A stretch of DNA of 64,000 bases from the NCBI GenBank assembly GCA_963422395.1, contig OY729431.1, forward strand, positions 1,440,001 through 1,504,000. The letters run 5' to 3'. Numbering within the stretch: position 1 is the first letter of the stretch; each line of letters opens with the position of its first letter. Shown here in pieces: positions 21,317-48,965 of the stretch. The notes below the pieces were generated by a model. That model searched no databases and had not been told where the DNA came from. It saw only the letters and a list, made by a program, of their open reading frames with translations. This stretch comes from Vicinamibacteria bacterium. GTDB lineage: Bacteria; Acidobacteriota; Vicinamibacteria; Marinacidobacterales; Marinacidobacteraceae. The translations under genes were made by a program, and so were the position numbers.

Positions 21317-21776
<460 letters not shown>

Positions 21777-22209: not shown

Positions 22210-22632
22210 TTACTTACACCTAAATATGAGACCACCCATTTCAAGGCGCTGCCCTTCCAAACCGCCGCTGATTTCAACTCTACCGCCTTTACAACTCACG
22301 GTATCGCCTTGGCTTATATTAAATGTTGAAAGACCGTAGGTGTCCACTTGGCTCTGAGTGATCCGGCAAGAATTGCCGTCGGAGACGGCTATCGCGCCAT
22401 TCTGAACCACACAGTCCGCTACAGAAACCGATGAGACCTGCGCTTGGGCACGGTTCGGCGACATCATGGCATGTACGGCCACCGGCGTCACCATGGCGAG
22501 CGAGCCGTAACGCCCGATGAAATCACGCCGTCCAGCTACCGGAGGCGCAACGGCAGCATCACGGGTGGCTTTCCCGGAGGGGCCATCCGGAACAACTACA
22601 TCACTTTTTCGGGGGGGGGGGGGGGGGAGCAT
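22210..22632 (-). CDS. Small secreted precursor-like protein, copy B (in frame through a C17 tract)
   Basis: AGGAGG then ATG at 22632; MLPPPPPRKS...RRDFIGRYGSLAMVTPVAVHAMMSPNRAQAQ leader and a four-Cys Ser/Thr/Gly-rich core. Confidence 0.8.
   Translation of the reverse strand: MLPPPPPRKSDVVVPDGPSGKATRDAAVAPPVAGRRDFIGRYGSLAMVTPVAVHAMMSPNRAQAQVSSVSVADCVVQNGAIAVSDGNSCRITQSQVDTYGLSTFNISQGDTVSCKGGRVEISGGLEGQRLEMGGLIFRCK
22611..22627. repeat. G17 homopolymer (poly-C on the coding strand)
   Basis: Directly visible, 2 nt after the start codon. Confidence 0.9.
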
Positions 22633-26441: not shown

Positions 26442-28235
26442 TTATGCCCGGAGGCCCACAGCCTTTGGCATGGCGGCCGTTTCCTCACCCTCTTCTCCGG
26501 TCATCGATTTTTCCGGCGGGGTAGCCGCATCCGCGAGGAGGTCCAGCTTCTCCCGGATCTCGGGGTCGAGGTCCGCGTCCGGGATGTGGGCCGCGAGCTC
26601 GTGGAAGCGCTTCTTCGGCATCCGGTTCGGCTCGCCGAGCAGGGCGAAGTACTCGTGGAACACCGGCTCGAGCCAGTCGTCGCTGGCCTTCGCGTCGGAG
26701 GAAGCGGGATCGAGACCGGGCCGGAGTATCCGAGCCGCGCTGCGGACCCGCCGGATCGCCTCCACCATGGCCCGGCGCCGGCGCTCGCCGCCCCCTTGAG
26801 CGAAGAGGTTCGGTGGACCGCCGCCCTTCGGCTTTCCGGCATCGGCCCAGGCGAGGAGCGTTCCTTCCGAGCAAAGGTAGTTCTCGATCTCCCGGCGCTT
26901 CCAGGTCCAGGCCGCCATATCGCCCATCTCCGGAAGTTCTTGCGGGAGCCGGTCGAAGAGCGCGCCGGCACGGAGCTGCGGCAGCGCTTCCCGGAGCCCG
27001 TGGAAGTGGTGGAGGGCTTTCGTGGGTTGGTTGCCGACCGGCTGGACGAAGGCGGCTTCGAGCGCCGCGGCGGCCTCTGGGTGGCCGACTCGCTCGGCAA
27101 GCGCCCGCAGCACCGCCTGGTCGGTCGTTCCTTCCACATACAGCACGAAGCCGGTCTTTCTCGCCGTTTCGTAGTCCGAATAACCGATGTCCCGAAGCGC
27201 CTTGAGAAGCTGGCTGCCCTGGTCCGCGATCCGGTGCGGGCGCCCGACGAAAGCCACGATGGTGTCGCGCCCGGCGGCCTCCCCGAGCAGCACCTCGGAA
27301 TGGGTCGCCGCGATGATCTGGCTGCCGCTCTCGTCTGCGGTGCGGACCAGCAAGTCGTACAGCCGGCGCTGGCGAAGGATCTCGAGATGGGCGTCCGGCT
27401 CGTCGAGGACCAGGACCGAGCCCTTGTTGAGGGCCAGATGGGCCAGCAGCAGAGTCGTCTGCTGCAGCCCTCTTCCCGAAGCGGTGATGTCGAACCGGAC
27501 TCCCCGCTCTTCATAGGACATGGAGATCTCACCGCGCTCGGCGAGGTGCCGGGGCGAGTCCAGCCGCGCTCCGAAGGATTGCTCGATTCGGGAAACCAGC
27601 CGCCGCCATTCCTCTGGCTGCTCCTCGCTGATGCGGAAACAGAGGTTCCGCAGGACTTCCGCGGTGCGCCCCTCCCCGAGGCGGACCGAAACGCCGCCGG
27701 GTTCGAGCCGCAGTTCGTTCGCCGCGAGTCCGGACATCGGGGGCAGGTAGGCGACCCGAATCGAGCCGGCCGGGTCCGGGACCGGCATGCGTTCCGCGCC
27801 GTCGGGTTTCCGGCGAAGCGGCCGGCAGTAGAGGGATTCTTCGTTCGCATAGTCGAACTCCAGCCCGGCGGTCCAGCAGGCTCCCTCGGATTCGCCCTCC
27901 ACGACGACCTCGATCCGGATGTTGTCGGTTCGTTGACGGCCGTCCTCCCGCCGGACATTCCGCACCCGGAGGTTTCGCCAGAGCTGTTTGGCGTTTTGTG
28001 TCGGAACCGCCAGCAGGTCACGCCGGTTCACGGTCACGCCGGGGCGTTCGGCAGGTGTTTCGGTCCCGTAACGCTTCTCGTTCCAGCGGCGGATCCCGAG
28101 ATCCCAGAGCGCGAGCGCCTGGAGCGCGGTGGTCTTGCCCGAGTTGTTCGGGCCGACGAAGAGGACCGGGCTGTCGAGATCGATCGAGACTTCACCGAAC
28201 CGCTTGAAATTACGGACGGTCAGCCGGGTCAGCAC
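26442..28235 (-). CDS. OLD-like ATP-dependent nuclease (ABC/SMC-type ATPase plus TOPRIM-like domain)
   Basis: VRNFKRF, GPNNSGKT, SGRG, VLDEPDAHL, ATHS, then YVEGTTD and REIENY. Confidence 0.8.
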   Translation of the reverse strand: MLTRLTVRNFKRFGEVSIDLDSPVLFVGPNNSGKTTALQALALWDLGIRRWNEKRYGTETPAERPGVTVNRRDLLAVPTQNAKQLWRNLRVRNVRREDGRQRTDNIRIEVVVEGESEGACWTAGLEFDYANEESLYCRPLRRKPDGAERMPVPDPAGSIRVAYLPPMSGLAANELRLEPGGVSVRLGEGRTAEVLRNLCFRISEEQPEEWRRLVSRIEQSFGARLDSPRHLAERGEISMSYEERGVRFDITASGRGLQQTTLLLAHLALNKGSVLVLDEPDAHLEILRQRRLYDLLVRTADESGSQIIAATHSEVLLGEAAGRDTIVAFVGRPHRIADQGSQLLKALRDIGYSDYETARKTGFVLYVEGTTDQAVLRALAERVGHPEAAAALEAAFVQPVGNQPTKALHHFHGLREALPQLRAGALFDRLPQELPEMGDMAAWTWKRREIENYLCSEGTLLAWADAGKPKGGGPPNLFAQGGGERRRRAMVEAIRRVRSAARILRPGLDPASSDAKASDDWLEPVFHEYFALLGEPNRMPKKRFHELAAHIPDADLDPEIREKLDLLADAATPPEKSMTGEEGEETAAMPKAVGLRA

Positions 28236-31713: not shown

Positions 31714-33045
31714 TCATTTCTCCTGGTGAGGTTTTTCCTCGGAGATGGGCTCGGATGGTTCGGCGATCGCGTAGAGATGCTCGCTCCCCCGCAGGTAGAG
31801 GGTGCCGTCGACGATCGCCGGCGAAGCCAGGACCGGCTCGTCCACGCTGTTCGTGGCGAGCAGCGAGAAGCGGGCGCCAGTGCGCAGGATGTGGGTGTCT
31901 CCGTCTTCGCTGGTGAGGTAGAGCCGCTCCCCGGCGACCACCGGGGAGGAGAAGAAGCGCGACGGCAGCGGTGTGCGGATCCCCTCCTGGATCACTACGC
32001 CGGTTTTGCCGTCGAGTACGGTGAGGATGCCGCCGTCGCTGACGAGGATGAGCCGGCCCCGGTGGAAGACGGGTGACGGTACATACCCCTGCCCCTTCCG
32101 ATAGCTCCACACGAGCGAACCGTCCTCGACATCGAGGGCGAGGATCCGCTTCTGCGGATAGCCGGTGACGGCGAACACCAGACCGTCCCCGGAAGCCGCC
32201 GGGGTCGGGACCGCGTTGCCCGAGAGGCCCTCCGCGCGCCAGCGCTCCCGGCCGGTGGCACTCTCATAGGCAGCGATCGCCCGGACGCCCATGGCCACCA
32301 CCAGCGAGGTTCCGTCGCTGGTCTCGACGATCGCCGGGGTGGCCCAGCCCGCCGGCTGCTCCCGTTCTCGCCGCCAGGCGAGCTCCCCGGTGGCGGTATC
32401 GAGGGCGGCGAGGAAGGAGCCTTCGCCCCCCTCCACATCGTTTTGCAGCACTACCAGCCCCGCGCTCGCGACGACCACCGGCGAGATGCCCACCCCCATG
32501 CCCATCGTCCCGACACCGCCGAAATCCCGGGACCAGAGCGGCTCGCCGTCGAGGCCGAAGGCGTGGAGCCCCTGCGAGCCGAACCAGGCCACCACCCGTT
32601 CGCCGTCGCTCGCCGGAGTGGGGTTCGCGTAGGAGCTCACCCGGTGGCGGTTGTCGAAGGGCAGCGCCGAAGGCTGCGCCGTCCTCCGCCAGCGGACTTC
32701 GCCGCTTCGCCGGTCGAGGGCGAGCAGCACCGCTTCGAGCCGCCGATCGGCACCGAGGCTGTCGGGGTGGAGGAATTCCTCTTCCCCCATGAAGTGGATC
32801 ACCGCGCGGGCGCCGGGGACGGTCTCACCGGGGACCGCGGTGGTGAGGAACACCGCGTCGCCGACCACGATCGGCGATGAATTCCCCCGCCCCCCGATCC
32901 GCAGCTTCCAGAGGATGTTCTCGTCCTCCTGCCAGCGCAGCGGCCCTGCCGCGTCCACGACCGCCCGCCCGCCGGGGCCGCGCCAGCCGGGCCAATCCTG
33001 CGCCGCGAGCGAGAGGGCGGCCGCGGCCAAGAGGGCGAACTTCAC
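31714..33045 (-). CDS. PQQ-like beta-propeller protein
   Basis: GTG start overlapping the upstream stop, signal KFALLAAAALSLAA, DWPGWRGP, SSPIV. Confidence 0.88.
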   Translation of the reverse strand: MKFALLAAAALSLAAQDWPGWRGPGGRAVVDAAGPLRWQEDENILWKLRIGGRGNSSPIVVGDAVFLTTAVPGETVPGARAVIHFMGEEEFLHPDSLGADRRLEAVLLALDRRSGEVRWRRTAQPSALPFDNRHRVSSYANPTPASDGERVVAWFGSQGLHAFGLDGEPLWSRDFGGVGTMGMGVGISPVVVASAGLVVLQNDVEGGEGSFLAALDTATGELAWRREREQPAGWATPAIVETSDGTSLVVAMGVRAIAAYESATGRERWRAEGLSGNAVPTPAASGDGLVFAVTGYPQKRILALDVEDGSLVWSYRKGQGYVPSPVFHRGRLILVSDGGILTVLDGKTGVVIQEGIRTPLPSRFFSSPVVAGERLYLTSEDGDTHILRTGARFSLLATNSVDEPVLASPAIVDGTLYLRGSEHLYAIAEPSEPISEEKPHQEK

Positions 33046-34427
33046 TGCGGGGCCTCGCGGAAGGCATAGAGGTGGTCCACGCCGCGCAGGAAGATGGTCC
33101 CTCCGGCCACCGCGGGAGAGGCCCAGAGCGCCTCGGGGATCGAGCTCTCGGCGACGATCTCGAACTCGCGCCCGGCGCGGAAGACCGTCAAGTCGCCTTC
33201 GAGGCTGCCGATGAGGATGTTCCCCTCGTAGCCGATCGGCGAAGCGTGGTAGCGCCCCGGGTTCGACGGCCGCCCCTGGAAGAGAAGGGTGCCGCTCTCC
33301 GGATCGAGCGCGGTGACCACTCCGCCGTCCGACAGGAAGAAGAGGAGGCCGCGGTAGAGGAGCGCCGACGGCAGGTAGCCGGTGCCGCGCTCGTAGGACC
33401 ACCGGGTCTCCGGCGGAGCTGGGCCCGTGAGGGAAAGGGCGCGCATTTCCTTCCTGGGATATCCCGTCGAGACGAAGACGAGCCGCTCGCCGCCGAGGGG
33501 AGCGTGGACCGGAGTGTGGATCACATTCGAGTCGAAACCGGCAGTTCGCCAGATTTCGGCGCCGCTCGCCGGGTCGTAGCCGGCGATCCGGTCGTAGCTC
33601 GGGACCACCAGCTGCGTTTCGCCGCCGACCGGGAGCAGCGCGGGGGTCCCCCAGCTCTTCCGCACCCGGCGCGGAGTGGTCCAGACCACCACGCCCGAGC
33701 GCCGATCCACCGCGAAGATCCGGGACCTCTCCCCGCCGTCGTCGTCGCAGACGAGGAGGAGGAGCTCCTCGTGGAGCACCGGGGAGATGCCGTGGCCGAG
33801 CCCCCAGACTCCGAAATCGCCCAAGTCCGTCTCCCAAACGGGTTCTCCGTCCAGGGTGAAGGCGAAGAGCCCTTCCGAGCCGAAGAAGAAATAGACCCGT
33901 TCCCCGTCGGTCAGTGCGGTGGGGGAGGCGTAGGTGTTGCCGCGGTGGCGGTCGTCGTACACCGGGCCTTCGCGCACCGCCCGCCGCCATAGTTCCTCGC
34001 CGTTCGCGGCGTCGTAGGCGAGTGCGAGCAGGACATGCGACCGCTCGCCGTCCAGGCTCCCCGGGTGCAGGTACATTTCGCCGTCCCGGATGTGCTCCGG
34101 CGGCGCCTTCCCGGGAAGCACCTCGCCGGCTACTGCAGCGGAGACGAACAGGCGCCTGCCCCAGACGATGGGCGACGAGTGGCCTTCGCCCGGAGTCACC
34201 GTCTTCCAGATCCCGGTCGCTTCCGGATCGAAACGGATCGGGAGCCCGGTCTCGTTCGAGACGCCGTCGGCAGTCGGCCCCCGCCAGTTCGGCCAGTGCG
34301 CCGGCGGCTCACCGCTATTCGGCCCTCGCTCCGGGCTCGGCAAGGCCGGTCCAGCGGGAGACGGACCCACTCCTGAGAGGAAGAACAACGGGAGGAGCAG
34401 CGGGACCGCCGCAGGAGGGACGCTCAC
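33042..34427 (-). CDS. PQQ-like beta-propeller protein
   Basis: GTG at 34427 overlaps the nucleotidyltransferase stop; HWPNWRGP, GHSSPIVWG. Confidence 0.88.
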   Translation of the reverse strand: MSVPPAAVPLLLPLFFLSGVGPSPAGPALPSPERGPNSGEPPAHWPNWRGPTADGVSNETGLPIRFDPEATGIWKTVTPGEGHSSPIVWGRRLFVSAAVAGEVLPGKAPPEHIRDGEMYLHPGSLDGERSHVLLALAYDAANGEELWRRAVREGPVYDDRHRGNTYASPTALTDGERVYFFFGSEGLFAFTLDGEPVWETDLGDFGVWGLGHGISPVLHEELLLLVCDDDGGERSRIFAVDRRSGVVVWTTPRRVRKSWGTPALLPVGGETQLVVPSYDRIAGYDPASGAEIWRTAGFDSNVIHTPVHAPLGGERLVFVSTGYPRKEMRALSLTGPAPPETRWSYERGTGYLPSALLYRGLLFFLSDGGVVTALDPESGTLLFQGRPSNPGRYHASPIGYEGNILIGSLEGDLTVFRAGREFEIVAESSIPEALWASPAVAGGTIFLRGVDHLYAFREAPQ

Positions 34428-35713
34428 GGAGGCTTCTCCCGCGTATTGTGCATCTCTCCGGCGGCTTCCGAGGTGCGTTTCAGGAACCTTGTGCCGCCGA
34501 TCTCGCCCCCGTCTTCGAAGTCGCCGATCAGTCGGGGGTGGTGCTGCAACGCCTTCGCCTCCGCCCGCCTGCGGGCCTCGGAGAGTTTCGAGCGCGGGTG
34601 GATCAACTGGCGAACCCGCCGCCGGATCCGATGAGCGAGCAGTTTCGAACGCTCTCCGAAGGACAAGCCCGCCCCATCCGGCACGGCAAAGGTATTCGCG
34701 AGCCCGGCACGCCAGAACCTGCCGTTGGCGTGTTCCCGCAGAGTTTCGCGGGGAGTGTCCAGCCGGGCGATGGATTCCGCCAGCCATCGCGAAGTCGCTG
34801 CGCCAGGGATGTGGGTGGTGGCTGGGGCGTCCGGCCAGAACCAGATCAGCAGCTGCCGCGCCGCTGCCAGCTCCTCGGGGTGGCGGGTGAAGGCACGCTC
34901 GATCACCGACCAGTCGACTCGCCCTCCGGCAGCCGTGACTAGCAGGTAGATGTGATAGCTGTAGCGCAGATCGAGCGACCGATCGCGGTAATGGTGATGG
35001 TCGAGCAGGTCGTGGGCGATGGCCTGCGCGACTTTTCCCGACGAGGTCAGCTGCCAGGCGCGCAGCGGCGGGTCGAATTCCGGCGCGGCGACGGGTTCGC
35101 GCGCATCCGCAGCCAGCATCCGCAGCGGATCGCCGCCGTTCAGCAAGCGTCGGTGCAACTCGACGGTCACCCCGCCCGGTCCCACGAGAGCCGGAGCGTG
35201 CTTCTCCTCGCGTGCTTCCGGCCACGGGGAGAGATCCCCGGGTTCGATCTCCTGATAGCCGCGCTCGCGGAGTGCCCGCCAAGCAGAGCCTACTGTCTCG
35301 GGCGGAAGCAGCACATCCAGGTCCATCATGAAGCGCCGGCCGCGCAGATCGGCCGGCTCGCTCCATAGTTCTGCCGAGCCCTTGAACAGCAGCGGCTCGA
35401 TGCTGCGCTCGTTCAAGAACGCGACCAGGCGCATCAACTCATCTTCGAGCGCAGCATGACGCCGCTCGCTCCCTTCGATGAGCCAGCGGCAGTAGCCGCC
35501 GAGAGAATCGTCGCTGTCGGCGATGCGCAGCGGATGCCGCACCACTGCGTGGGCGAGCGCCGGCCCTAGCCAGAAGCGGTTGGCCAGCTCGAAGAGATCC
35601 GGCCAGTCCACCTGGGCCGCCGGCGGGAATTCGTCCCAGCGAGTCGGGTGCTCCAGAGTTGCGAGGGCGCGGCACAGATTCCGGATGAGAGCCTCTGTTC
35701 CCGATTCCTGCAT
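34424..35713 (-). CDS. Nucleotidyltransferase family protein (NTP_transf_5-like)
   Basis: LFKG...R.MMDLDVLL and VELHRR motifs. Confidence 0.85.
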   Translation of the reverse strand: MQESGTEALIRNLCRALATLEHPTRWDEFPPAAQVDWPDLFELANRFWLGPALAHAVVRHPLRIADSDDSLGGYCRWLIEGSERRHAALEDELMRLVAFLNERSIEPLLFKGSAELWSEPADLRGRRFMMDLDVLLPPETVGSAWRALRERGYQEIEPGDLSPWPEAREEKHAPALVGPGGVTVELHRRLLNGGDPLRMLAADAREPVAAPEFDPPLRAWQLTSSGKVAQAIAHDLLDHHHYRDRSLDLRYSYHIYLLVTAAGGRVDWSVIERAFTRHPEELAAARQLLIWFWPDAPATTHIPGAATSRWLAESIARLDTPRETLREHANGRFWRAGLANTFAVPDGAGLSFGERSKLLAHRIRRRVRQLIHPRSKLSEARRRAEAKALQHHPRLIGDFEDGGEIGGTRFLKRTSEAAGEMHNTREKPP

Positions 35714-37048
35714 CAGCCGTACCAGGCCACCGCCTGTTCCTCCATCCAGCGGACGACGCGATCGCAGGCGCCGTATCGAACCTCGAAGGCCGGCAGCGCC
35801 GCGAGGTGATCGACGAAGGCGATGGCCTCTTCGGCGTGTCCGATCCGCCGCTGGCGATAGCCGTTGCGGGTCATTGCGAGCACCGCTTCAGGCAGCGAGA
35901 GCGGCCGGACGGCCAGCTCCTCTCCCGGTACGAATCGAGGCGCGACCAGCACTGTGGGAATCGGGGGCTCCTCGGCGGGTGGTCCCTGGGCAGGGTCTTC
36001 CGTCCGCACCGCCGAAGGGAACTGATGGCGCCCATCTCTCTCTCTCTCTCTCTCTCTCTCTGGCAGAGGGCGGCCAGTAGAGGACGAACCGACGCCCGTC
36101 CGGGCGCTCCAGCACTGGAGGCAGGCCGTCGGGGTCCATGCCAGCGGCCTTCCAGGCGCCCTCCTTGATGGCGAGGGGCACTTCGGTGGGCAGCGGTCGG
36201 AGTTCCTCGTCGAGGACGATGGCATCGTCTGACGAACAGATGCCGCCCCGGTCGGTCAACACTTTCGAAAGGGTCGTCTTGCCGGCGCCGGTCGGAGCGG
36301 GTAGCAGCCACTGCACGCCGCGGAAGCACACAGAAGCGCCGTGACACCAGAATCGATACGGGAGTGCTTCGCAAACCGCCTCGAACGCCGCGGCGACGAC
36401 GGCTCCGGCGAGCTGCCCCAGGTTCGCGCAGGGGACGAGCCGCCCTTCCGGCAGGACGACCTGATAGGCATCGGACCCGAGGGAGTCCACGGCTAGCTCC
36501 ATCACTGGGCCTGGCGGCCTGTCCCCTCCTCGATCACTACGCCGGTGGACGGAGTCCACCGGCCGTCGAGCTGCGATCGCCTGGTCCGCCACTCGCCGCA
36601 GCAGGTGCGCCGCCCGGGCCGCCGCTCGCTCTGGGCCGCGGAAATTCACCCGCACCGCCGCCGGCGGAAACACGAACGACTCTGCGCGTTCCGAGAGCCG
36701 AGGGGTGCGAGGGGGGCGCTCGCGCCGTCTGTCTTGCCCCTCAGAGATCCGCCCCGGCCGGAACGGCAGGTCGGGCAGCGGGAGTGAGGGGTCGGCCAGC
36801 GTCGCCGCGTTGGCACGCGCGATTTCCAGGCTGGTGCCGCCGATGTCCGGCTCCAGTTCGTCGGCCGCCGGTTCCGGCCGTTCGGCTGCGAGTGCCTGCA
36901 AGAAGCGCCAGGAGGTCCAGTCCAGCCACACCAGCGACTGACGCTTGCGGCAGTAGACGAGCGGGCTGGAGACGAGCGGACCGGCCGCCGAACTGCCGAG
37001 TGGCGGCTCTAGAACCTCCCAGGCAACGAGGTGCGGAAGGCCGGACAG
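35713..37048 (-). CDS. RRE/PqqD-like plus HPr-kinase-like P-loop protein, frameshifted at an (AG)13 repeat
   Basis: HGASV, APTGAGKTT and SDD in frame 35888..36931. The C-terminal LVAPRF..G..PLS..EA..RYG lies in frame 35713..36225, whose TGA overlaps the next ATG; start uncertain (CTG 37048 or GTG 36931). Confidence 0.75.
36035..36061. repeat. (TC)13 / (AG)13 dinucleotide microsatellite
   Basis: Directly visible at the frame switch of the kinase gene. Confidence 0.93.
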
Positions 37049-37259
37049 CTCTTTCCTGGCAGCCTGCGCCGCAGGAAAGAGTGAGGTCGAGGTGGGGAGG
37101 ATGGGTGCGTCGGGAGGATGGACGAGGTTCTATCGGGGTTTCGCGGTAACCGCCGCAGGAGAGATGCGCACGTCAGGTCCCCGCGTATTGTCCGCTGGAG
37201 TGATAGCAGTGACTTTGGGCGAAGTGCCGTGTGACTTCATCCATGCATAGAAGGCTGTT

Positions 37260-37604
37260 TCAAGCCAAGAACCGAAAGGCGGCGAAGAGGAGCCCGGCGA
37301 TGGCCAGGGTGGCGAGCATGCCCCGGCGCTCGCTGGCGCTGATCGCTGCGGAGAGTTTAGCATAGCTCGTCTCGATGGCGGCTTCGAGGTGGACGCGGAG
37401 CGTGTCGAGGTCGGACTTCGCCGCGGCTTCGAGGCGCTCGAGGCGGGCGGTGAGCGCGGTTTCGAGGCGGTCGAGGTCGGACTTCGAGGCGCCGGATCCA
37501 TCGGCGAGCGCGAGCTCGGTGACGATGGCGCGGGCAATGGCAGGATCGGCCCCGGCGGCGATGATGCGTTCGGCGGCGGCTGCGGTATCGAGGGAGTAGG
37601 GCAT
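37260..37604 (-). CDS. Small coiled-coil protein with C-terminal TM helix (DUF1640/CCDC90-like)
   Basis: LDT...I.AAG....ARAIV, repeated KSDLD.L, hydrophobic tail; AGGAG RBS. Confidence 0.7.
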   Translation of the reverse strand: MPYSLDTAAAAERIIAAGADPAIARAIVTELALADGSGASKSDLDRLETALTARLERLEAAAKSDLDTLRVHLEAAIETSYAKLSAAISASERRGMLATLAIAGLLFAAFRFLA

Positions 37605-37741
37605 GGTGAGCTCCTGTGGTCGGGCGATCGGGAATTCGCAATCTACAGCATCGACCACCACCACCCCATCGGGCACCTCCACCTCGTCGAGGTTGTGTGC
37701 GGCCCTTCCCCTGAAGATAGCCAGCTCTGCTCGCGGCGACG

Positions 37742-40099
37742 ATGGCTTCGCGGCTTGGGTGCGTGCCGCCGCCGATAGAATCCCGGCCCGCCGTGCCTAC
37801 TGGACCCCCTTTCGGATTCTTTGCCGGCCCTTCCACCAGCCGGGCTGACTCTCGGATCCGGCCGGCGATCCCTCCCGCCCTGCCGGTGGTTTTCACCGCT
37901 TGTCTCTTCGCCGCCGGCGCTTTTTCAGCCGACTGGCCCGAGGGTCGAGGACCGACGCGCGACGGCCGCTCACCGGAGACCGGTCTTCCCGAATCCTGGT
38001 CGCCCGACGGAGAGAACCTCCTGTTCCGGGCGCCTTACGGCGGCCGCTCCACCCCGGTGATCCTCGGCGGCCGCCTGTTCCTCCAGACCGCGGTCGGCGA
38101 GGGCGAGACCCGCCAGGCCCGGCTGCTCGCCCTCGACGCCGGCACCGGCGAACTGCTCTGGGAAGAGCGCCGCAACATCTACCACTCCGATGCGCCCCCC
38201 CGGCGGGTGGGATGGGCTTCTCCGGCCGCCGACGCCGAGACCGGGACGGTGTTCTGGTTCACCGTCGGCGGCGGGCTTTCCGCCTTGGCTGCCGAAAGCG
38301 GAAACCTCCGCTGGGAGCGCTCGCTGCCCGAAGAACTCGGCCTGGTGACCACCCACGGGGGGCGGACCGCTTCGCCGCTGATCCTCGGGGACCTGGTGAT
38401 CCTTTCCGGTCTCACTTCCTCCTGGGGGGCGCAGGCGCGCGGCAGCCAGCGCTTCTTCGCCTTCGACAAGCGGACCGGCGAGATCGTCTGGCTCTCGACG
38501 CCCGGCGGCCGTCCCTTCGACACGACCTACTCCCCCGCCCTGGTCCGCAAGGTCGCCGGTCAGCGGCTTCTGCTGGTGGGCGGCGGCGACGGGGCGTTCC
38601 ACGCGATCCAGCCGACCACCGGAGCCTCGGTCTGGCGGTTCCCGATGAGCAAGCGCGGAGTGAACAGCGGGGCGGTGGTCTTCGGAAACCTCGCGGTGGT
38701 GAGCCACGGCGAGGAGAACCTCGAGTCCTCGCAGATGGGCCTGCTGGCGGCGCTCGACGCCCGCTCCTCCGGCGAGATCGCGCGAAGCGAGGCGCTCTGG
38801 GAAGCGCCGGGCTTCATGGGGGGCTATTCCTCCGGCGTCGGTGATGGAGAAATCCTCTACCAGCTCGACAACAGCGCGAACCTGACCGCTTTCTCCGCGA
38901 ACGACGGCGCCGAGCTCTGGTCGGAAAACCTCGGCACCATCCAGCGCGCCTCTCCGGTGCTCGCCGACGGCAAGCTCTATGTGGGGACCGCGAACGGCCG
39001 GTTCTTCATCCTGCGGCCGGGCCGCGAAGGCGTCCTCGTGCTCGACGACGACCGGCTCGGCACCGAAAGCGCCCTGGAGGAAATCCTGGCTTCGGCGGCG
39101 ATCAGCGACGGTGTCGTGTACCTGGTCTCTACCGGAGCGCTCTACGCGATCGGCGAGCGCCGCCCGACCCTCGAAGCTCCGCCCGAAGCTCCGATTGACG
39201 CCTCCTCCCCTGAGATCTCCCCCGAAGCTCCTTCTCCGCCGGTGCGTATCCCGGTGCGCCTGTTGGTCTCCCCCACCGAGGAGATCCTGGCGCCCGGGGA
39301 CGAGGTCCCGCTCACGGTGCGGGCCTTCGACGAGCTCGGCGATCCGGTGGACCCCCCGGCGGAACTTCGCTGGTCGGTGGCAGGATTCGATGCGGAGGTC
39401 CGGAACGGGACGCTTTCGGTCGGGGCCGATGCTCCGGAAGGAGCCGGAACGGTGATCGCCGCTGCGGGCGCCATCGAGGGAGCGGCGCGCTTCCGCGTCG
39501 TTCCTCCCCTGCCCTGGCACTGGGATTTCGACGGCGAAGACGCCAGGGTCCCGCCGCAATGGGTGAACGCCGCCGGCAAGTACGAGACGCGCACCGCCTT
39601 CGCCGGCGAGCGAGAGGAGCGCGTTCTGGTCAAGAAGGCCGACAACCCGTTCCTGCGCCGCGCGCGGGTGTACATGGGCGCTCCGACGCTTTCCGGATAC
39701 ACGGTTTCCGCCGATGTGCTGGCGAAGGAGCGGCGCCGCCAGCTGGGGAACGCCGGGCTCGTCGCCCAGCGCTATCAGTTCGTCCTGATGGGTTCCCACC
39801 AGCGCCTCGAGATCCACTCCTGGCAGGCGACGCCCGGCCGGACCGTCCAGATGCCGTTCGCTTGGGAACCGGACACTTGGTACTCCATGAAGTTCCAGGT
39901 CGTCGAGGACGAGGCCGGAACCGTCGCCCGCGGCAAGGTCTGGCAGCGGAGCGAGCCGGAGCCGGAGGCCTGGACCCTCGACTGGCGCGAGCCGCTGCCG
40001 CATCGCGAGGGGACCCCCGGCATCTTCGCCGACGCGGTGACCGCCGAAGTCTTCTTCGACAACATCCGCGTGGAACCGGGGAACCCGCCCGGAAACTAG
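37742..40099 (+). CDS. PQQ-like beta-propeller with C-terminal Ig-like and beta-sandwich domains
   Basis: ADWPEGRGP, repeated propeller blades, extra C-terminal ~280 aa; start uncertain. Confidence 0.85.
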   Translation: MASRLGCVPPPIESRPAVPTGPPFGFFAGPSTSRADSRIRPAIPPALPVVFTACLFAAGAFSADWPEGRGPTRDGRSPETGLPESWSPDGENLLFRAPYGGRSTPVILGGRLFLQTAVGEGETRQARLLALDAGTGELLWEERRNIYHSDAPPRRVGWASPAADAETGTVFWFTVGGGLSALAAESGNLRWERSLPEELGLVTTHGGRTASPLILGDLVILSGLTSSWGAQARGSQRFFAFDKRTGEIVWLSTPGGRPFDTTYSPALVRKVAGQRLLLVGGGDGAFHAIQPTTGASVWRFPMSKRGVNSGAVVFGNLAVVSHGEENLESSQMGLLAALDARSSGEIARSEALWEAPGFMGGYSSGVGDGEILYQLDNSANLTAFSANDGAELWSENLGTIQRASPVLADGKLYVGTANGRFFILRPGREGVLVLDDDRLGTESALEEILASAAISDGVVYLVSTGALYAIGERRPTLEAPPEAPIDASSPEISPEAPSPPVRIPVRLLVSPTEEILAPGDEVPLTVRAFDELGDPVDPPAELRWSVAGFDAEVRNGTLSVGADAPEGAGTVIAAAGAIEGAARFRVVPPLPWHWDFDGEDARVPPQWVNAAGKYETRTAFAGEREERVLVKKADNPFLRRARVYMGAPTLSGYTVSADVLAKERRRQLGNAGLVAQRYQFVLMGSHQRLEIHSWQATPGRTVQMPFAWEPDTWYSMKFQVVEDEAGTVARGKVWQRSEPEPEAWTLDWREPLPHREGTPGIFADAVTAEVFFDNIRVEPGNPPGN

Positions 40100-44755: not shown

Positions 44756-47700
44756 TCAGCCTTCGGGTTCGGCGTCGGGGCGGCCCGCCGCCAGGGCGTT
44801 TCCCCAGGCGAGGGCGAGGTCGCGCGATCGGTAGCTCCCGAATGTCTGCTGCTCCTGGCGTTCGAGGAGCGGGAAGGTCGAGTAGATATGCCGCACCTCG
44901 TCCCGGTCGCTCACTCCGTAGAGGTGGAAGAAGACTGCGTCGATCTTTGCGCGGAGGCGGAGGCGCCGGTCCTCGTTCCAGACGAAGGGCGGGCGGACCC
45001 GGCCGGAGGCGTCCAGATACCCGAGCTGCTCGGCGAAGGATGCCAGGTCGTTCGCGGTGTAGCTGAGCTCGAGCACCGCTTCGCGGACGATCTCGAAGGC
45101 GGTCTTCGGTCCGAAGCGGACGGCCTCGTAGGCCTCCGGCGGCACCACCGGCAGCTGCTCCAGCAGGAACAGGTTGAGGGTCTGACCCTGGACCTTCTGG
45201 CGGGCCACGAAGTCCAGCGGAATCGAGTTCAGATTGGCTGCCAGCAGCCACTCGCGCCGCTCGGTGAAAAGCGGGCAGAGAACCGGAATCTTGTTCCCGA
45301 AACCCACCGCCGGGAGGAGCGCGGCGATCACCGTACGGATGTTCGTCGTCGCAGTGATTTCCTTGAAACCGAGGACCCATCCCGTCTCCGGCTGCCAGCC
45401 GCAGTCGGCTTCCGGTATCCAGAACTGCGGCTCCGGCGACCAGTCGGGATCGCGGTGCTGTTCGAGGGCGGCGGGGACGGGGACGCCGGGGCGGTGCCGG
45501 TTCTCCGGATTCACCGCGACGCGCGCCGCCCGGTGATCGAACGCCTGCACCATCTTCCCCTCGTAGAGGGGGACGAAGGCGCCGGAAGGGCTGTCGAAGA
45601 GGTTTCCGCGGACGCGCCAGGCGCCCTCCTTCTCCTCCAATTCGGCGCGGGTGCGGAACCGCCGGGAATCGTTCGTCATGTCGAACATGCGGACATATTT
45701 CACCGGCCACGCCCGCACCGCCTCGCCAGCCGACCGGTCCACCAGCACCGGCAGCCGCCGGTAGATCGCGGTGGTGATCTCCTGGTCGCGCCGGCTGCGG
45801 AAGATCGGGGCAGTGCCGGTGTTCGGGTTCACCCGGCGGAAGTCCTCCGGGCTCAGCTCGAGCACCCGCTCCGGATCGCCGAGCTCCGAGATGCTCTGCA
45901 GGAAGAAGGCGCAGCGGGCGGGCGCGTTCGTCGGGGAGCGTCCCGCCGCCAGGACGCAGAATTTGAAGCGCGAGTCCACTGCCGGGAAAAAGGGCGGCGC
46001 GCCGAATCTCGTCCTCCGGTTCTCGAAGTCGTAGAGCGCCCGCAGCTTTCCCGCACTGGTGAGCGAGCGGAAGAAAGGGGCCGCCGTCTTGTCGGCAGCG
46101 ATCCCCGAAGGCACCAGCAGCCCCAGCACTCCCTCGGGGTGCAGCAGCGCCATCCCCCGCTCGACGAAGAGCGAGTAGAGGTTCAGGTCTCCCCTGCCGA
46201 GGAGCGGATAGTCGCCGGATTCCCGCGCCACCCGCGCGGCGGCCCGCGCCCGCCGGTCGGCCCGCGCGAAATCGGCGGCGAGCGGGTCCCCGCTCTTCCC
46301 GAGCGCCGCGATCTTCGCCTTCCGGTCGGAAGCGCGCTGGGCCCCGGCGATCTCCGGGCGGCGGAGTGCGAACCATTCGACCTGCTGCAGCTTCACCCGG
46401 TCCCAGGGCGGGTTGCCGATCACCGCGTCGAACCCGCCCCGCTCCGGGCTCTCGGCATCCGGCTCGGCGAAGACGCCCGGGAAGGCGAGCTCCCAGGAAA
46501 GGAAGCTCTCCTCGGCGGCGAGGCGGCGCGCCTCGTCGAGGAGTCCCCGGAACTTCGCCGCCAGCGCGCCCTCACCGGGGACCTCGATCTCGCCGGCGGC
46601 AGCCTCGGCAGCGAGAGCCACCGGATCGCCGAACCGCCCGCCCAGGTAGGCCTTCACCGCGGCGCGCGCCTCGCGCGACCGGTCCTCCAGCCAGTCGAGG
46701 GCGTGGAGCACCGACAAGAAGGCGGCGAAGGGGCGGGTCCGCTCCTGGATCTCGTCGAACAGGCGCTCCGATTCGCTCACCTCGGAGAGTTCGGCGTCGC
46801 TCAGCCGTTCGATGGCCGCCATCGGCGAAGCCGCCGCTGCTGCCCGGCGGATCGGTCCGGCGACGAAGAGCGGACCGCCCTCGGCGAGCGCGCGCGCCTT
46901 CCCCTCGCGCACCCAGGAACCGAAGAGGCTGTCGCCCGAGCGCAGGTGGTGGTCCAGGAAGGAGAGCGGCGCCCCCACGGTGAAGGAGTGGAGCCAGAGG
47001 GAGAGCTTGGCGAGCTCGACCGCCATCGGGTTCTTGTCCACCCCGTAGATCGAGCGTTTCAGCACCATCCGGCGGACCAGCTGCCGGTCGTCGAGCTGCG
47101 ACGGTTCCACCGTCCAGCCCCCGGCGCGCGCGTTTTCCAGGATCGTTTGGCGGATCTCGCGGATGCGGGCTGCGACCGGCGATTCGTAGCCCGGCGCCTG
47201 CTCGTGGGTGAGTGCGAGGGCCTCGATCACCCCGTCGGTGAGGTAGTCGAGCAGGCTCACCAGGAAGTGCCCCGAGCCCATCGCCGGATCCAGGACCTTC
47301 AGGGCGAGGATCCGCGAGGCGGCGTCCGCCGCAGCGAGCTCCGCCGGGTCGGCTTCGGGACCGGCGCACTCGGCAAACTCGTGCAGGGCCTTCTCCACCC
47401 GCGGGCTGACGGTCTCCTCGATCACCAGGCGGACCAGGGGCTCCGGGGTGTAGTAGCTGCCCGAATCCCTCCGCGCCGCCGAGTTCGGCCGCACCACCAC
47501 TCTTCGAGCGACTCCCCCTTCGTCTTCCTTTCCTGCTTCCCCTGCCTTCTCGTGGACGACCTCCTGTTCCAGGAGCCGTTCGTAGATCGAGCCCAATTGC
47601 GAGACCGAGAGGTCCCGGTAGTTGAGGTAGCGCCGGCCGCCCGGCGCTTCGCGGAAGCCCAGCCGGTCCACCACCCGCGCCACCGCCGCGTCCGACAGCG

Positions 47701-48856
47701 CGATCCGATCGAGGAGCGGCGCTCGGCTCCGGTCGAAGAGCCCGCCGTTGTAGGGCGGCAGCCCGAAGGCGGGGTCGCCGGAATCGAGGACGCGGCAGAG
47801 ATCGGTGATCTGGTGCCAGTAGCCGCTGGCCTGCTCCGAGAAGGCCTCCCCCCGGTCCAGCCGCTCGGCGATGTCGCCCCGGACCTGATGGCGCAGCCCG
47901 ATGTTCCGGTAGCGGGAGTCGCCCACCGGCAGCAGCCCCCGGTCTTCGGCGTAGAGGATGAAGAGCAGGCGATAGAGCAGCACCAGCGCCGCTTCCTGGA
48001 CCTCGGGGAGCGGGGCGTCCGGCGCCGCTCCGGCGATCCTGGCGGCGAGCCCCCCGAACACCTCGCCGAAGACCACCTTCGAGAGATCGCCGGCCACCTT
48101 TTCTGCGAAGTAACGCCCCTGTTCCAGGGCGAGATCGTGGACCGTCTCCCCACCGCCGCCCTCCGGCAGGAACCCGTCGCGCCGGAAGAAGAGGGTGAAG
48201 AGCGTCAGTTCGTCGAGCGGCTCGCCTCCCTCGAGCGGGAACCGATCGGGAGCGCTGCCGGTCGGATCCAACGCCCGATCCAGCTCCACCTCGAAGAAAT
48301 CGCCGGAGACCGAGCGCGCCTCGGTGTGGTAGAGGCGCCAGCGGGCGCCGTTCGTCAGGATGCCCCAGCGCACCCGCCCGCCGGTGGCGGTCCGCGCCCG
48401 TCGCAGGTAGCGGAGCATCTGGGTGGCTGGCGCCGCCCGGTCGGAACCGGAAGGCCGATCCAGATCCAGCTTCCAGCGTTTCGTTTCGACGAGGCAGACG
48501 CCGAAGGCGAATCGCCGGAATTCGTCCTCGACTCGGAGCGCCTGCGTCTTTTCGGCAGCGTTCAGGAACAGGAGTCCGTCGGGGATGTCCCGGCGGCCGT
48601 GGAGGCTCAGGTTCTGCTCCCGAAGCGTTTCGGTCCAGCCGAGTGCCCCGAGCACTCGCCAGACGAGTTCGTCGGCAGTGACCTGCTCGCTGACCCTCTG
48701 TTCCGACGCGCTCGGTGCGGGAAACTCGGCGCGGAGGCGCCGGAGCTTTGCGGCGAGGCCGGATGCGAGGTCGCCCCGCGCCGCTTTCCAGGCGGCGAGC
48801 TCGCGCACCCCTTCGGCGAGGAACTCACCGGAAAAGAGTGATCCCGCCGCCATCAT
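44756..48856 (-). CDS. Type IIG (Eco57I-like) fused restriction endonuclease / adenine methyltransferase
   Basis: PD...ETK nuclease, LTNG..WRLY, YNGGLF, GSYYTP, DPAMGSGHF (motif I), GNPPW (motif IV). Confidence 0.9.
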   Translation of the reverse strand: MMAAGSLFSGEFLAEGVRELAAWKAARGDLASGLAAKLRRLRAEFPAPSASEQRVSEQVTADELVWRVLGALGWTETLREQNLSLHGRRDIPDGLLFLNAAEKTQALRVEDEFRRFAFGVCLVETKRWKLDLDRPSGSDRAAPATQMLRYLRRARTATGGRVRWGILTNGARWRLYHTEARSVSGDFFEVELDRALDPTGSAPDRFPLEGGEPLDELTLFTLFFRRDGFLPEGGGGETVHDLALEQGRYFAEKVAGDLSKVVFGEVFGGLAARIAGAAPDAPLPEVQEAALVLLYRLLFILYAEDRGLLPVGDSRYRNIGLRHQVRGDIAERLDRGEAFSEQASGYWHQITDLCRVLDSGDPAFGLPPYNGGLFDRSRAPLLDRIALSDAAVARVVDRLGFREAPGGRRYLNYRDLSVSQLGSIYERLLEQEVVHEKAGEAGKEDEGGVARRVVVRPNSAARRDSGSYYTPEPLVRLVIEETVSPRVEKALHEFAECAGPEADPAELAAADAASRILALKVLDPAMGSGHFLVSLLDYLTDGVIEALALTHEQAPGYESPVAARIREIRQTILENARAGGWTVEPSQLDDRQLVRRMVLKRSIYGVDKNPMAVELAKLSLWLHSFTVGAPLSFLDHHLRSGDSLFGSWVREGKARALAEGGPLFVAGPIRRAAAAASPMAAIERLSDAELSEVSESERLFDEIQERTRPFAAFLSVLHALDWLEDRSREARAAVKAYLGGRFGDPVALAAEAAAGEIEVPGEGALAAKFRGLLDEARRLAAEESFLSWELAFPGVFAEPDAESPERGGFDAVIGNPPWDRVKLQQVEWFALRRPEIAGAQRASDRKAKIAALGKSGDPLAADFARADRRARAAARVARESGDYPLLGRGDLNLYSLFVERGMALLHPEGVLGLLVPSGIAADKTAAPFFRSLTSAGKLRALYDFENRRTRFGAPPFFPAVDSRFKFCVLAAGRSPTNAPARCAFFLQSISELGDPERVLELSPEDFRRVNPNTGTAPIFRSRRDQEITTAIYRRLPVLVDRSAGEAVRAWPVKYVRMFDMTNDSRRFRTRAELEEKEGAWRVRGNLFDSPSGAFVPLYEGKMVQAFDHRAARVAVNPENRHRPGVPVPAALEQHRDPDWSPEPQFWIPEADCGWQPETGWVLGFKEITATTNIRTVIAALLPAVGFGNKIPVLCPLFTERREWLLAANLNSIPLDFVARQKVQGQTLNLFLLEQLPVVPPEAYEAVRFGPKTAFEIVREAVLELSYTANDLASFAEQLGYLDASGRVRPPFVWNEDRRLRLRAKIDAVFFHLYGVSDRDEVRHIYSTFPLLERQEQQTFGSYRSRDLALAWGNALAAGRPDAEPEG

Positions 48857-48965
48857 CGGACCCGAGCGCGTCTCGCTCGGACCGGAGGCGAAGGCGGCCT
48901 GGCGAGCCCCGGCGCTGCTCTTCGGCAATCCCTGTCCCGGCGACTCCGGCTCTCAAAGGGGCGGG

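Follow-up and report, generated by a model that had tools for sequence, protein, structure and literature searches.

Repeat-driven on/off switching of genes is textbook knowledge for a few host-adapted pathogens and has scarcely been recorded in environmental or symbiotic bacteria that are uncultured and rich in G+C. Among the literature found, judged by title and abstract, there was no case of simple-sequence-repeat phase variation in Acidobacteria. In Mycoplasma mycoides subsp. capri, a Type III mod gene is OFF with (AG)12 and ON with (AG)10 (PMC3498834), and phase variation through a G tract has been described for Streptomyces pglX (PMC4365076). For the enzymes concerned here, a work on lasso peptides describes phosphorylation of lasso precursors at their C-terminal Ser by HPr-kinase homologs, and a nucleotidyltransferase that adds hexoses to this phosphate (PMC8498205). 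Here, we analysed a 64,000-nucleotide stretch of a Vicinamibacteria bacterium (Acidobacteriota; Marinacidobacterales; Marinacidobacteraceae), comprising positions 1,440,001 to 1,504,000 of the forward strand of contig OY729431.1 (assembly GCA_963422395.1) and hereafter called the window. It carries a minus-strand gene for an HPr kinase (HprK)-like protein, interrupted by an AG dinucleotide repeat and followed by a nucleotidyltransferase gene. The repeat is real, length-polymorphic and frame-breaking, lies in a single gene and is of the known contingency-locus kind. Window positions of the kinase–nucleotidyltransferase module are:

37046-37048, minus strand: CTG, a non-canonical candidate start of the kinase, preceded by AGGAAAGAG and upstream of the conserved LPHLVAWEV motif.
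36062-37129, minus strand: upstream part of the kinase in the P-loop frame, with a PqqD/RRE-like N-terminal domain (~36755-36961) and the beginning of the kinase domain.
36272-36298, minus strand: Walker A P-loop APTGAGKTT, read from the sequence, with G283, K284 and T285 in invariant alignment columns.
36035-36061, minus strand: the AG tract, A(GA)13 on the coding strand, 27 bases, perfect; the frame break is located here.
35888-35890, minus strand: premature stop of the P-loop frame after the tract, 175 bases short of the nucleotidyltransferase ATG.
35713-36034, minus strand: C-terminal portion of the kinase, its frame lying one base downstream, with the natural stop TGA at 35713-35715.
34424-35713, minus strand: nucleotidyltransferase of 429 amino acids, PF14907 (NTP_transf_5), 62.4 bits against a cut-off of 31.2.

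An earlier prediction made from the letters of the window alone (the original prediction) had proposed that an (AG)13 repeat frameshifts the kinase. Tandem Repeats Finder returned a perfect array at 36035-36061 (period 2, 13.5 copies, 100% matches), and a 20-base (AG)10 probe matched the window only at this tract, while none of 100 shuffles that preserve the window's dinucleotides contained a match. The tract is a long, perfect intragenic repeat, beyond chance expectation, with a unit that is not a multiple of three, as characterises a contingency locus. The P-loop frame is open over 35888-37129, is bounded upstream by a stop at 37130-37132 and continues for 57 further open codons after the tract. 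The C-terminal-frame open reading frame (ORF; 170 amino acids, ATG 36225, stop 35713-35715), to which the coordinates of the original prediction correspond, has the tract inside it. The offset between the two frames is a single base (36502-36225 = 277 = 3x92+1), and they are joined by +2 bases or by -1, -4, -7 and so forth, which corresponds to +1 or -2 in whole AG units. When one four-base step is read at the 3' end of the tract, a single open protein up to the natural stop is obtained.

The position of the break is bounded by conservation. In the P-loop frame this runs to VLYWPP, just before the tract, and in the C-terminal frame it resumes from ~PAEEPPIP, which confines the shift to an 87-base interval in which the tract is the only repeat. 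The kinase TGA (35715-35713) and the nucleotidyltransferase ATG (35713-35711) overlap as TGATG (35715-35711). This overlap had been put forward as a sign that the restored stop is the true end of the kinase, and the homologous pair in a Bryobacterales metagenome-assembled genome (MAG) overlaps as well, with a nucleotidyltransferase GTG start 11 bases before the kinase stop. The switch of frames at the repeat, the unit changes that restore the frame and the natural end of the gene thus agree with the original prediction, and the observation of a frame-breaking repeat in one gene is confirmed.

Homology ties the two frames together. The joined protein was used as query against 5.8 billion clustered proteins, and two of the 3622 candidates (P0006 and P0007) passed the threshold of E <= 0.001. 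P0006 (394 amino acids) is 63% and P0007 (417 amino acids) 60% identical to the joined protein, with coverage of 99-100%, so that both homologs, which are intact, can be aligned with it from one end to the other. Rather than ending before the repeat, both are continuous across the break without a repeat of their own, and there was no period-2 array at L017, the Bryobacterales MAG locus. TIGR04352 was matched by the N half at positions 98-158 (E 0.0081) and, colinearly, by the C half at positions 203-278 (E 1.8e-4), and the joined protein matched the same model at E 6.6e-9. Together with the P-loop, these matches bear out the earlier assignment as an HPrK-like kinase. With 35.3 bits, the joined protein does not reach the curated cut-off of TIGR04352 (200 bits), nor does the intact homolog P0006 (30.4 bits); scores this far below the cut-off place the gene as a distant sister, not a member, of that equivalog. 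On these sequence comparisons, both halves derive from a single gene.

Tract length differs between public data sets. Six public runs contain the stretch wholly or partly; four were compared, with the repeat zone (36026-36070) masked, and raw Hi-C data of X7, sampled at ~1/100, gave 0 reads there. A contig from another study (X6) covers 35961-36682 with 714 letters for 722 positions, that is, with 8 gaps, and is otherwise identical. As no indel is listed outside the masked zone, the 8 missing letters belong to the tract, which in X6 has 9.5 units (19 bases). In X1 (2015), from a 2%-divergent strain, the contig is 21 letters shorter over 35985-36563, and the loss falls within the masked zone. 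In X2 (depth ~150-180), two contigs approaching from the two sides each stop 28 letters into the zone (9 of flank and 19 of repeat) and none bridges it, a break point that would be expected of a branch in a 31-mer graph if a 19-base allele coexisted with longer ones. Among metagenome contigs from JGI, a two-flank pattern with a gap of 5-35 bases gave 0 matches, and a protein-based scan of them found no relative.

The kinase tract is one of several exceptionally long repeats in the genome, a single contig of 2,908,270 bases with 68.4% G+C. Repeat lengths are sharply bimodal: 33 of the 35 dinucleotide repeats of at least five units have at most six units, the remaining two having 13 and 14, and 68 of the 75 homopolymers of at least eight bases are no longer than 11, the other seven measuring 16, 17, 18, 19, 32, 32 and 38. 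Besides the kinase tract, the long repeats are:

C1:2579287-2579314 (L010:4288-4315): (CT)14 on the coding strand, splitting a Type IIG/DrmMI-like enzyme from its C-terminal region.
C1:635512-635530 (L053:512-530): G19, splitting BREX pglX, with profile positions 3-568 and 599-1122 in different frames.
C1:2451234-2451265 (L051:1234-1265): C32, splitting sspB (DUF4007, Ssp phosphorothioation), with profile positions 2-82 and 84-279 in different frames.
C1:1015888-1015903 (L049:888-903): G16, with an ATG before it and an N6_N4 methylase (PF01555, E 2.5e-31) after it.
22611-22627 and 21736-21773 of the window, minus strand: C17 and C38, respectively, each immediately following the start codon of one of two small paralogous proteins.
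C1:681483-681514: C32, inside a 507-amino-acid open frame with no Pfam match.
C1:189637-189654: G18, right after the ATG of a 238-amino-acid open frame with no match.

The (CT)14 gene has a 1108-amino-acid Eco57I/MmeI-type frame (PADLOC Type IIG E 8e-77, DrmMI 3.4e-65), and 27/36 matches to its C-terminal region outside the genome lie in open frames of at least 900 amino acids. Its tract requires a +2/-1 base correction, as the kinase tract does. Long homopolymer lengths are uncertain in the assembly and the ON/OFF states of those tracts are provisional. Read in this way, G16 sends the methylase ATG frame into a TAG and would be in frame as G17 or G14, whilst of the two paralogs, both with strong AGGAGG ribosome sites and the twin-arginine signal RRDFIGRYG, the one with C17 is in frame and the one with C38 is not (C37 or C40 would be). 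Real contingency-type tracts are likely in this organism, and since the other long tracts also sit in genes, the prior for the kinase tract as a switch is raised.

Several further observations concern these repeats and their surroundings. The (CT)14 Type IIG gene adjoins a DrmD-like SNF2+PLD helicase, and in sspB ~95 bases including the C32 tract look like an insertion when compared with the profile. When the G run is taken as top strand, (A/T)TTC precedes five of the seven G/C tracts of at least 16 bases (GAATTC twice, TTTTC twice, ATTTC once). Cumulative GC skew is lowest near 0.1 Mb and peaks near 1.44 Mb, which places the window at the replication terminus; in all five tracts away from the terminus, it is the leading strand that carries the G run. 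The shared flank and strand pattern may reflect a common origin or a strand bias. The window also contains intact defence-type genes on the minus strand, namely an AriA/OLD/GajA-like AAA_15/AAA_21 ATPase (26442-28235) and a 1390-amino-acid Type IIG/DrmMI-like enzyme (44756-48928), with at least seven PQQ_2 beta-propeller genes around them.

To place the kinase, its intact homolog P0006 was searched against 1.84 billion representatives, which gave 1434 relatives at E <= 0.001, 63 at <= 1e-10 and five at <= 1e-30. An alignment (A2) was built from P0006 and 64 of the 150 listed hits, hand-chosen for a length of ~355-440 amino acids. All 65 members matched TIGR04352 (best E 9.8e-34), 38/65 the lasso PqqD chaperone model, 41/65 PF05402 (PqqD) and 11/65 Hpr_kinase_C. 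The N-terminus of the A2 profile matched the solved lasso B1 proteins TbiB1 (E 2.8e-10) and TfuB1 (6.2e-9), and its centre matched HPr kinase chains (1ko7, E 4.5e-5; also 3tqf). The window's own N-terminal 143 residues had no Pfam or NCBIfam match, though they align with the relatives, 41/65 of which match PF05402. By these sequence matches, the gene product is read as a PqqD/RRE peptide-binding domain fused to an HprK-like P-loop kinase. The best-matching family for both gene halves, as for 65/65 relatives, is that of the NCBIfam HPr-rel-A system (TIGR04352 kinase A with the TIGR04353 PqqD chaperone); a PqqD-type partner would be common to both, fused to the kinase here and separate there. 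Invariant positions are preserved. G283, K284 and T285 are invariant in the alignment with P0006 and P0007, the 65 relatives all share G226 and K227 of P0006, and every column invariant in those relatives (H, the P-loop GK and K265) is retained in the window kinase.

An AlphaFold model of P0006, built with A2, had a mean predicted local distance difference test (pLDDT) score of 88 and a predicted template modelling (pTM) score of 0.87. Its best Foldseek matches were phosphoenolpyruvate (PEP) carboxykinases (PEPCK), at E 1.2e-4 and with a low TM score of 0.34; the HprK and PEPCK folds are akin, and the P-loop, the HPr kinase profile matches and these structural matches support a kinase fold of the HprK/PEPCK type. 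The tract maps to the loop 294-313 of this model, where block 301-310 lacks secondary structure and has a pLDDT of 64. Across the 65 relatives, the portion corresponding to P0006 286-324 is 30-47 residues long (median 35), against 59 in the window read-through. Judging from the model, an in-frame Arg-Glu run should be tolerated in this variable, low-confidence surface loop.

The start of the kinase gene lies well upstream of the ATG at 36502. The homologs are ~140 residues longer N-terminally than the ORF from that codon, the same residues are conserved in the window's upstream open frame, and the codon itself sits in a 14-residue insertion relative to the homologs, on which grounds it was rejected as the kinase start. 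The first ATG/GTG/TTG of the kinase frame, at 36931, lies inside the conserved domain, and the CTG at 37046-37048 is the only plausible, though still candidate, start upstream of LPHLVAWEV. Two small minus-strand ORFs adjoin the kinase upstream, one of 23 amino acids (37173-37244, ending in GQYAGT) and one of 36 amino acids (37130-37240), the latter in the kinase frame with only a TAG between. Neither has a Ser at its end; they are possible candidates for substrate peptides or for remnants of a longer N-terminus. At L017:7895-8030, the conserved N-terminus of the homolog (MKMPILSERRGRDVPAFPHLVAWEA...) is out of frame with the rest of the gene, with the shift at a G5 run, which explains why the database protein P0006 begins at an internal ATG; this shift is probably a homopolymer error of that MAG assembly. 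Further upstream on the minus strand, 37260-37607 encodes a small coiled-coil protein that ends in a hydrophobic tail at its C-terminus and has no Pfam or PADLOC match; a 33-base tandem repeat of 2.5 copies (37405-37486) lies inside it.

The nucleotidyltransferase passes the gathering threshold of PF14907, with a match spanning profile positions 2-226 of 249, is present as a single copy in the genome and is 62% identical to the gene adjoining the L017 homolog. The intact window gene contains G-S...DLD, which we take to be the nucleotidyltransferase motif. No Shine-Dalgarno-like sequence was seen by eye within 10 bases of its ATG, which makes a polar effect of an OFF kinase plausible from the sequence. 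Over 33800-37800, there was no promoter-like site and no minus-strand terminator-like site, and the window as a whole had no Rfam matches and no tRNAs. The kinase–nucleotidyltransferase pair is the only synteny with L017. Downstream of it lies:

33042-34426, minus strand: PQQ_2 beta-propeller protein with a signal-peptide-like N-terminus, starting at or next to the nucleotidyltransferase stop.

This gene has no counterpart beside the L017 homolog and stands outside the conserved two-gene module, and the neighbours in general (PQQ_2 propellers, an S9 peptidase) are unrelated to it. The region has 68-70% G+C, like the genome (68.4%); with this composition, and no tRNAs in the window, recent horizontal transfer was rejected on composition. 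A defence-system reading of the kinase and nucleotidyltransferase was likewise rejected, as PADLOC gave a hit for neither.

With the joined protein as query (E <= 0.001), 7/41 related genomes matched, a tally that counts the window's own genome and takes in one weak match in the unpublished genome G033, and across our genome collection L017 was the only related locus. The wider kinase family is frequent, occurring in 212/401 genomes of a phylum sample at E <= 1e-8 (including the unpublished G192). A relative of the nucleotidyltransferase stood beside kinase relatives at 4/29 other loci, as counted by an insensitive single-sequence tblastn with only 1.5 kb of flank each. A lasso cyclase and a B2 protease were absent among the window neighbours, the asparagine-synthase-like cyclase not having been searched genome-wide. 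PF13471 (lasso B2) had 0 matches in the whole genome and PF05402 (PqqD) none at E <= 0.001, and membership of a lasso-peptide cluster was rejected on these two results. By analogy, the pair resembles a peptide-tailoring pair but is no lasso cluster.

The reading we develop here, to which we give an even chance, is that the tract is a hypermutable, potentially reversible contingency-type switch, mostly or currently OFF and under relaxed constraint. The tract would act as a hotspot of slipped-strand mispairing inside the two-gene module, where gain or loss of AG units would decide whether the kinase's C-terminal third is read in frame. The kinase is OFF in the assembled genome, with translation ending at 35888-35890, and the nucleotidyltransferase would probably lose coupled initiation in consequence. 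By analogy with lasso tailoring enzymes, the module may first phosphorylate a peptide that it binds, with addition of a nucleotide-derived group as the next step. The original prediction of a contingency locus now OFF is borne out as to the frame break, and the length differences and the other long tracts speak for it; its working switch is not borne out, as 0/3 alleles are in frame.

Several results weigh against a switch that still operates. Each of the three alleles (27, 19 and 27 minus 21 bases long) is out of frame, and losses of 8 and 21 bases do not restore it; a set of three that are all OFF would arise by chance with a probability of ~0.3. The X1 allele, with its tract nearly gone yet out of frame, suggests fixed inactivation in that lineage. 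The lengths come from assembled contigs only, in which rare variants are lost and subpopulations do not appear. Of the 16 listed differences that separate X1 from the window, 12 are nonsynonymous and four synonymous (9:3 in the kinase, 3:1 in the nucleotidyltransferase), a small sample from contigs at depth 5-6; this split is as expected from sequences under neutral change or relaxed constraint. One of the X1 differences turns P to R at a position invariant in three close sequences. The conserved N-terminal frame contains no ATG/GTG/TTG between the stop at 37130-37132 and 36931, and we know of no reason for phase variation in this class of kinase gene.

Much of this could also be the mark of a decaying pseudogene, in which the module has fallen out of use in the lineage and the repeat slips freely without selection on the frame, the tract being a symptom; we regard this as quite possible, if short of an even chance. 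The uniformly out-of-frame alleles, the majority of protein-altering differences and the lack of a canonical start before the conserved N-terminus all point that way. So do the distribution of the module, which was not found in any of the 24 same-family genomes searched with the joined protein (E <= 0.001), and the lack of a visible partner pathway in a genome that lacks lasso B2 matches and, at that threshold, PqqD matches too. Decay fits less well with the state of the genes themselves: over ~400 codons of the kinase there are no additional stops or shifts, which leaves the frame break as the only clear lesion, the family-invariant residues are all kept and the nucleotidyltransferase is intact. 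A perfect 13.5-unit tract would also be unexpected under neutrality in a genome where nearly all dinucleotide repeats (33/35) have six units or fewer, and the shallow depth of the X1 contigs limits what their 16 differences can say for decay.

An error of assembly or consensus, with the majority allele in frame (e.g. 14.5 units) and the repeat miscounted, is unlikely in our estimation. The length of a long repeat is the weakest part of any consensus, and a systematic undercount by one unit would give the same +2/-1 correction that both the kinase and the (CT)14 tract need; however, contigs of X6 bridge the tract with 8 fewer bases, are otherwise identical and are likewise out of frame, so that lengths other than an in-frame one do occur, and a marker completeness of 93.8%, near the upper limit of the 86-95% found in the family, speaks against widespread frameshift errors. 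Finally, both products could be intended, the tract setting a ratio of truncated (RRE + P-loop) to full kinase or ribosomes frameshifting on the repeat. This is very improbable: homologs without the repeat make one protein, the window contains no Rfam element, and to our knowledge frameshifting on AG repeats has no precedent.

Taking the long repeats of the genome together, it is conceivable, though doubtful, that they form a genome-wide set of hypermutable switches (G/C 16-38, AG 13-14) comprising four defence genes (BREX pglX, sspB, a DISARM-like Type IIG enzyme and an N6_N4 methylase), two genes for twin-arginine (Tat)-secreted proteins and one RRE-kinase module, with the kinase module a phase-variable peptide-modification or unrecognised defence-related system. 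Were this so, it would be the first tailoring pair of the type that modifies peptides made on ribosomes and altered after translation (RiPPs) to be under repeat-driven on/off control. If the tracts are real switches, BREX, Ssp, Type IIG and a peptide-modifying pair would be toggled stochastically in a natural population, which bears on how "broken" genes in MAGs are to be read. If the kinase is decaying instead, it is an ordinary pseudogene with a slippery repeat.

Among known systems, the enzymes find their closest counterpart in the lasso tailoring pair of a paeninodin PadeK-type kinase and a pseudomycoidin PsmN-type nucleotidyltransferase, where an HprK-like kinase likewise stands beside a nucleotidyltransferase and a PqqD/RRE element; in the parts of that source available, these examples are not described as phase-variable (PMC8498205). 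The RRE is fused to the kinase here, and no precursor peptide was identified at our locus. For the repeat, the likeness is greatest to M. mycoides mod, which has ~12 intragenic AG units, a sequenced allele truncated after the repeat and a frame restored by a two-unit change, with slipped-strand mispairing proposed there too (PMC3498834). An in-frame, active mod clone was isolated (PMC3498834), whereas no ON allele was seen at the kinase tract. The present gene differs from mod in encoding a peptide-binding kinase, in carrying its tract two-thirds into the gene in a surface loop, and in belonging to a genome of 68% G+C. A CT/AG dinucleotide tract likewise toggles the frame of Helicobacter pylori oipA, where it lies in the signal-peptide region of a pathogen surface protein (PMC10564699); the tract described here lies in the gene for a cytoplasmic enzyme of an uncultured bacterium.

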